This document shows positions 35,548-36,308 of a DNA stretch of 36,308 nt, one piece after another; within the stretch, counting starts at the first letter, position 1, and the number at the start of each line of letters is the position of its first letter. The stretch comes from Paraglomus brasilianum. Taxonomy: Eukaryota. The DNA lies in contig CAJVPI010000295.1 in the NCBI GenBank assembly GCA_910592345.1, positions 1-36,308 on the forward strand, written 5' to 3'. The position numbers and the translations under genes are program-made. The notes beneath the pieces are model-generated. The model worked only from the letters and a program-made list of their open reading frames with translations, was not told the DNA's origin and ran no database searches.

Positions 35548-36308
35548 GAATGAATGCATCTACTGTTAAACAGTAGATAAAATTATAAAACGTTACTTCT
35601 TTTTAAACAGCCAAGTTCCAGGTAGCCTCATCTATGCAGGTCTTTTTAAACCATTTTTATGGGAAAAAAAATGGTGTTACCGCTCCCTCCCTGCACTCCC
35701 ATGCTTTTTTAGTAAAGCAACCGAAGACTCCCTAGCTGTTTTAATCAGTAGTAACGACGGGCGGTGTGTACAAAGGGCAGTGACATGTTCAGCATGATCT
35801 AGCATAGTAGCTCATGTTTACTAAAGAGCCTTATTGATAAAGCATAAAAGATATTGTAGATGTGAAGGACTAATACCAGTCAAACAAGCTAAAGTGAGGA
35901 ATAGATTCAGCGTTAACACCTCATCAGTGTAGCACAAATTCAGCCCAATAAACTTTCAGTAACAGAGTTTGAACGTTCACAGCAGGCCGTCCACCGTACG
36001 CCAGGGCTGGATACCTGACTGGCAACTTTCGCAAGCTGCGGCCACGATGCGCTTTCAATTCCCTCTGATTTACACCTACAGCCATCGTCCAAAAGTCTGG
36101 CAACATCTGTGCAGCATCACACATCATCTATAAACTCACATAACTAATTGACCTTATCAATCCCTACATCAATCTCTTACTCTAACTTTATCACATAGTC
36201 CCAAAATATCTACAGAGCTTTACAGACTTGCCATAGCCTCATTCTTCCTCCAGTCATTTATTTTATTCAGACTGGCAGTCCATACACTTGGAGAGGCTGC
36301 TGTAAGAA
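35548..36308 (-). rRNA. Extremely diverged nuclear 18S rRNA-like sequence (3' major and 3' minor domains; continues past the window end)
   Basis: Exact eukaryote-type CTGCCCTTTGTACACACCGCCCGTC (35780-35756); collinear anchors GGACT..GGAAG..GAGGC..GTCTGT..TAGAT, GCTACACTGA, TAGTAA, AACTTGG..TTTA..GAAGTA, terminal hairpin and TCATT, in canonical order. Confidence 0.85.

Follow-up and report, generated by a model that had tools for sequence, protein, structure and literature searches.

The window, that is, the whole stretch of 36,308 nucleotides analyzed here, ends inside an unusual copy of a small-subunit (SSU) rRNA gene. Judged from its sequence, the minus-strand interval 35549–36308 is the 3′ portion of a eukaryote-type, much-diverged 18S gene copy of a Mucoromycota-like fungus, and it presents an uneven picture in which base-specific decoding features are lost and pairings are mostly retained (Table 1). 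The analysis establishes homology to 18S rRNA, loss of the decoding motifs, retained as well as new predicted stems, and presence beyond the assembly. We tentatively favor, at a little short of an even chance, the explanation that this paralogue yields, or for a long time yielded, a non-translating rRNA whose predicted fold stayed under selection after decoding had been lost.

Colinear likeness to eukaryotic SSU rRNA is present in both sequence and structure. A profile of the 18S 3′ half matches the window just three times at E ≤ 10, always on the minus strand and in canonical order (36252–36200, E = 2; 35947–35919, E = 5.7; 35823–35721, E = 3.1e-15). A covariance model of canonical h43–h45, built from 11 references with the window excluded, aligns to 35801–35550 (E = 1.6e-13), the runner-up among its 33 matches at E ≤ 10 having E = 1.2; when that alignment is used without its structure, the match reaches no further than 35713, short of the 3′ strand. 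The copy comprises the head domain from about h39/h40, then h43, h44, and h45, and runs past the window end, beyond which G530, the central pseudoknot, and the h28 5′ strand would lie. The head-domain block at 36200–36248 scores well above a control maximum of 36.5 (a control measured on L015), and this block alone has a profile E of 0.31–2. The Rfam SSU model (RF01960) has no match in the window at its gathering score, nor in 33500–36308 at E ≤ 10, and two true 18S sequences used as positive controls score 1657 and 535 bits.

The canonical references comprise at least 56 loci from contaminant contigs plus Escherichia coli 16S rRNA, and 18 of the 56 entered the profile together with L001 and L015. 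The 18S references were picked by the ITS5 primer site, so that agreement among them at 1485–1505 is built in; several are near-duplicates, and all represent the 18S of other eukaryotes rather than the working 18S of the host, so that some of the changes described below may be inherited. The reference loci are themselves worth recording. L015 (NZ_CP050525.1; 1764 bp), deposited as a plasmid of Acinetobacter, is an almost complete eukaryotic 18S gene (Rfam, 1657 bits); L001 (1–2182), a contig of a viral collection fused at about 1420 to a eukaryotic 18S 3′ half, probably arose as an assembly chimera; and L017–L072, at least 56 prokaryotic genome contigs with a eukaryotic 18S/ITS primer site, are contaminant rDNA.

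Table 1. Features of the 18S-like copy and its 3′ flank (window coordinates; h, helix; z, folding z score).
Feature	Coordinates	Strand	Evidence or remark
Diverged 18S-type rRNA gene copy, 3′ part	36308–35549	minus	Colinear 18S profile matches and covariance model
Hairpin at the h40 place, of new sequence, between conserved GGACT and GGAAG	36251–36274	minus	Pair probability 0.99; z = −2.5
Conserved head-domain block (L015 1402–1449)	36200–36248	minus	35/49 identical to L001; score 55.5
Insertion relative to canonical 18S, about 252 nt, TTGGG at both flanks	35948–36199	minus	Profile positions 297 and 294 abut
New long G·U-rich stem, about 360 nt	35835–36193	minus	z = −4.0 on minus strand, −0.8 on plus strand
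Conserved block with GCTACACTGA (L015 1438–1471)	35919–35947	minus	21/28 identical to L001; profile E = 5.7 alone, colinear
h43	35790–35818	minus	7/9 pairs retained, loop longer by 5 nt; weak alone, z = −0.6
Closed A-site helix, 5′ strand (1407–1413), CGTTACT	35750–35756	minus	Complementarity and fold
h44 body	35598–35748	minus	z = −2.8; 10/10 pairs in anchored segment
Closed A-site helix, 3′ strand, AGTAACG	35591–35597	minus	Identical in a contig of run X6
Positions 1495–1505	35580–35590	minus	7/11 changed
h45, 10-bp hairpin, sequence changed, loop shortened and altered	35557–35579	minus	Fold and references
Remnant of the 18S 3′ end	35549–35556	minus	CATTCATT versus reference GATCATTA
CpG-poor spacer past the 3′ end	35260–35548	minus	5.8S/28S undetected; variants in other sequencing runs

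The surrounding DNA is eukaryotic, with about 35% G+C. It encodes a protein kinase and cytochrome P450 proteins, the genes of the latter being interrupted by introns, and also carries a gene family of four copies. For one open reading frame the closest protein clusters are mostly from Mucoromycota, with scores below 0.9 that make this a lead only. Expanded kinase families of this kind occur in arbuscular mycorrhizal fungi. The four-copy family (9478–18923, minus strand) consists of tandem paralogues, spaced about 2.5–3.1 kb apart, of a coiled-coil-like protein of 230–270 amino acids with no clear Pfam family, and two tandem cytochrome P450 genes that are about 90% alike lie at 21867–28854 on the plus strand.

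Downstream of the 18S-like 3′ end, profiles of 5.8S and ITS–28S detect nothing, and a 5.8S remnant guessed by eye at about 35530–35465 received no confirmation from them. The ITS5 primer site has been lost. The spacer includes a 27-nt perfect tandem duplication (35406–35460). Beyond it, an HDV-like ribozyme (RF02682; 35188–35259, minus strand; 47 bits, above the Rfam gathering score) heads a non-coding repeat, and an incomplete second copy of the ribozyme's 5′ part starts near 34808. This repeat (34475–35259) has internal tandem units of 44–51 nt and a depth of about 2000–5800 in run X1 versus about 100 for the neighboring contig, depths that are not copy numbers; joints going back from 35247–35259 suggest head-to-tail ribozyme-bearing units elsewhere.

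A preliminary description of this DNA had held that the decoding center is zipped shut by a perfect 7-bp helix. The helix is indeed there: 35756–35750 and 35597–35591 are complementary at 7/7 positions, with a pair probability of 0.98 in the fold of 36308–35540. A perfect complement of the heptamer arises in 285 of 20,000 shuffles of 35747–35540, so the match is not positional chance; it is mostly inherited, though. Five of the seven pairs (1407–1494, and 1410–1490 to 1413–1487) pre-exist in canonical fungal-type 18S rRNA, and the two new ones are formed by C1409U opposite A and by G1408 opposite the C directly before G1494. U1409–A1491 is present in working protist ribosomes. Because those five pairs exist in normal fungal 18S rRNA, the closed helix is weak evidence when taken alone, and its promotion to key evidence in the preliminary description goes too far: the fold prediction does close the loop, yet with just two new pairs, and three of the four neighboring decoding/P-site pairs (1399–1504, 1401–1501, 1404–1497) are broken. 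These three are also the pairs that the covariance model flags as broken in h44.

Among the four adenines at 1490–1493, two survive; which were lost is ambiguous, and the covariance model reads one adenine as deleted together with A1493C. In either register, the predicted fold leaves no unpaired adenine pair at the A site. The motif following the A site had also been described as altered, and positions 1494–1505 (E. coli numbering) do read GTTTTATAATTT versus GTCGTAACAAGG in the reference, with 7 of 12 positions changed and every change to A or T. The P-site surroundings hold an unchanged run of 26 nt with three CpGs. In h44, 111 nt correspond to 58 model positions, about 53 extra nt lying at the tip. 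The h45 loop is TTTAA, as had been seen before, or TTA if the closing U–A pair forms, in place of the TGAA found in 18/18 references. Dim1 methylates the h45 loop. In the h45 stem, changes at 1510, 1511, 1512, 1524, and 1525 affect positions that are invariant in 18/18 references, and pairing is kept. Neither of two hallmarks of functional 18S rRNA is present, namely unpaired A1492/A1493 with G1494 and the 1495–1505 motif, or an h45 UGAA loop with a GGAUCA 3′ end, the latter being replaced by CATTCATT.

According to published work, the decoding cage is formed by the invariant residues A1492, A1493, and G1494 (PMC9014874), and yeast 40S subunits with A1492C are reported to be incapable of elongation and to be degraded (PMC5689013). 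Because the A1492/A1493 loop is predicted to be closed, 7/12 of 1494–1505 differ, and the h45 loop is altered, an RNA with the sequence of this copy could not decode, and the preliminary description was right to say so. The yeast 18S:A1492C rRNA, a model substrate of 18S non-functional rRNA decay, likewise has an A-to-C change at the decoding adenines and no elongation; as reported, however, it carries one engineered change, assembles into 40S, and has a half-life under 100 min (PMC5689013), whereas the window copy is natural and has many more changes.

A working but very unusual rRNA (of a specialized ribosome, a long-branch lineage, or a contaminant) or an assembly error is highly improbable as an explanation. 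Although G1408 is of the eukaryote type, the P site has an intact 5′ strand, and the helices lie at canonical places, the invariant decoding bases are missing, the Rfam SSU model is silent at E ≤ 10 on a sequence whose true counterparts score 535–1657 bits, and an independent run has the same helix 3′ strand and h45. Another organism's working rDNA, which had been argued against earlier, is also at odds with the contiguity of the copy with fungal genes and with its longest exact match to 59 canonical loci, which is 26 nt.

The claim that the RNA keeps its fold holds for much of the predicted structure but not for h41/h42, which are unlike the canonical helices and are replaced by the long stem. 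One arm of this stem is formed by the first 90 nt of the insertion and the other by the interval expected to hold h41/h42, where no sequence likeness to the canonical form is left. None of 54 control windows reaches z ≤ −3, a comparison to be read with the stem bounds having been picked after viewing the fold. With G·U and A·C scored alike, the stem contains 62 Watson–Crick, 13 G·U, 0 A·C, and 11 other pairs. This composition and the strand bias of the predicted stem, neither of which depends on the 18S references, fit, as expected, RNA pairing on the rRNA-sense strand. Counting against the stem as evidence, its arms are not significantly alike as DNA (129/500 shuffles). Likeness of the insertion to 18S is marginal at best (10–93/300 shuffles with six references); its origin as a tandem duplicate of the h41–h43 region is not supported, either directly (305/500 shuffles) or by this comparison with the six references. 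A group I intron core, sought as an identity for the insertion, is absent from the 7 Rfam matches at E ≤ 10, and a local h41/h42-like fold at 35925–35828 was discarded (z = 0.14).

Whether pairing is kept beyond chance bears on both the favored explanation and its main competitor. Against the reference L045, 24 sites differ within 33 pairs of h43, the 7-bp helix, a 10-bp h44 segment, and h45, with registers set by hand; 2 pairs are broken, and 9.9–11.8 are expected under a null of simulated unselected change (P ≤ 5/20,000). The references L019 and L049 agree with L045. The four decoding/P-site pairs were kept out of the 33, and with them included, 5/37 are broken. Eight of the paired-site changes are two-sided and five are one-sided, and 7 of 22 oppose A/T drift (5 T>C, 2 A>G). 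When CpG sites are allowed to change 5–15 times faster and the uncertain h45 closing pair is dropped, 47–188/20,000 simulations with L045 and 19–93/20,000 with L019 break as few pairs; when h45 is dropped entirely under CpG hypermutability, the counts are 212–3049/20,000 and 150–1800/20,000, respectively. Neutral helix-breaking decay thus appears to be rejected under simple nulls, weakly with CpG hypermutability, and not once h45 is left out. Of the helices, h45 is the most exposed to template switching, which is described as able to perfect short hairpins in one event (PMC8794818). The few broken pairs and the new long stem are nevertheless stronger evidence than the closed helix, with CpG decay and template switching weakening the pair test.

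These last two processes are central to the view that the copy is an old, dead rDNA pseudogene, in which symmetric CpG decay, a template-switched h45, and changes passed on by a rapidly evolving, functional paralogue would together mimic constraint, and the closed helix would be a two-mutation accident. This is a serious possibility, if one that we would not bet on. Of the 11 CpG sites in helices, 7 are changed, and the CpG observed/expected ratio falls to 0.51 for the copy and to 0.26 for the spacer, compared with 1.0 for the remaining window and 0.89–1.15 for canonical 18S; G+C is 0.41 in the copy versus 0.52–0.54. Lowered G+C and CpG loss are what a pseudogene should have, and the CpG depletion fits the pattern of a methylated, silenced repeat. 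Also in favor of a dead copy are the rise of P to 0.03–0.15 without h45 under CpG hypermutability, the missing 5.8S/28S, the high-depth repeat 290 nt downstream, the closed helix having only 2/7 new pairs, and the dispersed, partly silenced rDNA copies described in arbuscular mycorrhizal fungi (PMC6123716, PMC13443276). However, neutral decay that changes 7/12 positions at 1494–1505 ought to break many pairs too, and pseudogenization leaves unexplained both the strand-specific new stem (13 G·U, 0 A·C) and the unchanged 26-nt run with three CpGs.

The rRNA pseudogenes of filamentous ascomycetes, as described, are likewise diverged, non-working 18S copies with lowered G+C and CpG loss, which sit beside working rDNA (PMC5555474). 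Their changes are mainly G>A and C>T, also within helices, probably destroying them, whereas 7/22 changes here are T>C or A>G; the two-sided changes, those that oppose A/T drift, the 252-nt insertion, and the new long stem also set the window copy apart from the account given there (PMC5555474). The rDNA of arbuscular mycorrhizal fungi offers a likeness of another kind in its scattered, non-homogenized copies, including one methylated, possibly silenced rDNA unit reported in Gigaspora and two highly diverging rDNA types in Claroideoglomeraceae (PMC6123716, PMC13443276, PMC10512289). Rhizophagus 18S paralogues are given there as 99.91% identical; the window copy reaches only about 70–80% in its best blocks and has lost the decoding motif.

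Presence outside the assembly was assessed by shared 31-mers. Part of 35450–36308 is contained in 20 of 24 listed sequencing runs, comprising four runs of organism A, 15 soil or rhizosphere DNA runs from 12 studies (0.22–0.47 of words), and one RNA run (0.13 of words); because the longest canonical match is 26 nt, canonical rDNA cannot explain the shared words. For four runs, contigs were compared over 33500–35740, an interval that lies downstream of the helix 5′ strand and everything upstream of it. Within it, the independent rhizosphere metagenome X6 has a 151-nt contig identical to 35544–35694, which spans the helix 3′ strand and h45; run X5 has a variant of 35349–35540; and run X1, possibly the source sample and hence not independent, has, among the differences listed, a contig that differs at 35527–35548, just past the 3′ end. 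The flank 33500–33950 is uncovered in all four runs, which carries no evidential weight. The RNA run X20, a metatranscriptome, has no contig on 33500–35740, with positions above 35740 outside the comparison, and so decides nothing. Multi-copy status rests only on the variant contigs, the window end inside the element, and the number of soil studies.

Among viral, metagenome, and prokaryotic contigs, no homologue in another species was found. A two-anchor pattern had 13 matches, 5 of them in viral and 8 in metagenome contigs, and none resembles the window; the pattern presumed a shortened head domain, which later alignments did not support, although the window contains both anchors, and same-species copies would still match. 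An h45 pattern had no match in prokaryotic genome contigs. Because an other-species homologue was not found, covariation within a family is unmeasurable.

The variant copies in X1 and X5 diverge just past the 3′ end, and this, together with the termination of the window within the element and an HDV-like ribozyme 290 nt downstream on the same strand, would suit an rRNA-derived mobile element (SINE-like or otherwise non-autonomous) whose fold is kept through an RNA stage of its spread. We regard this as improbable. No second copy of the 18S-like element lies inside the window, its 3′ end is without visible tail or target duplication, and contigs with the ribozyme continue into other sequence at 35247–35259, which places the ribozyme in a separate repeat. 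rRNA-derived SINEs are known, SINE28 of mammals being, like the window copy, an rRNA gene piece outside the rDNA unit; as described, it derives from the 28S 3′ end, is highly similar to canonical rRNA, and is transcribed by polymerase III (PMC4994717), none of which is evident for the window copy. Such SINEs are reported to remain near their parent sequence (PMC4994717; reviewed in PMC10946416), and the window copy is far from canonical. The copy is least like a ribosome component and most like an rDNA paralogue escaped from homogenization.

If the copy is a non-translating paralogue, its history and behavior may be envisaged as follows. In a copy freed from decoding, constraint on base identity would lapse at A1492/A1493, 1495–1505, the h45 loop, and the 3′ end motif, and we infer that pairing constraint would persist while base identity drifted. 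The sealed A-site loop with its two new pairs would then best be seen as a by-product of selection for a stable h44. Replacement of h41/h42, the altered h45 loop, and the changed 3′ end are together predicted to lead to failure of late 40S maturation; Nob1, Pno1, and Rio1 are described as controlling, at the 18S 3′ end, which small subunits are released into translation (bioRxiv 10.1101/2022.07.29.501969). The RNA, if transcribed, would remain in a pre-ribosomal, probably nucleolar, particle and would never enter translation or polysomes. Staying out of translation would spare it from 18S non-functional rRNA decay, because that decay acts on translating subunits. Such an RNA might be of use to its host or might ride selfishly on the rRNA pathway, and the decoy, storage, and scaffold roles put forward in the preliminary description are conjectural.

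A bolder extension, which we consider doubtful, is that a subset of Mucoromycota may have a second, multi-copy class of SSU rRNA that is non-translating, with the loop sealed and the head remodeled, and that is transcribed into a ribosome-like particle acting as a decoy or scaffold or propagating itself via the assembly pathway. In the literature searched, which leaves most subscription papers out of reach, no 18S paralogue was found that had lost decoding but preserved its structure. rRNA copies that lose invariant bases are usually presumed to be dead and structureless. If the copy is instead a mere pseudogene, it is a warning that compensatory-looking changes can occur without function. If it is a paralogue kept for its fold, rRNA would have been reused for another job, and the parts of SSU RNA needed for assembly would be separated from those needed for translation; similar fungal genes could be overlooked, with Rfam blind to them and the ITS5 site gone.
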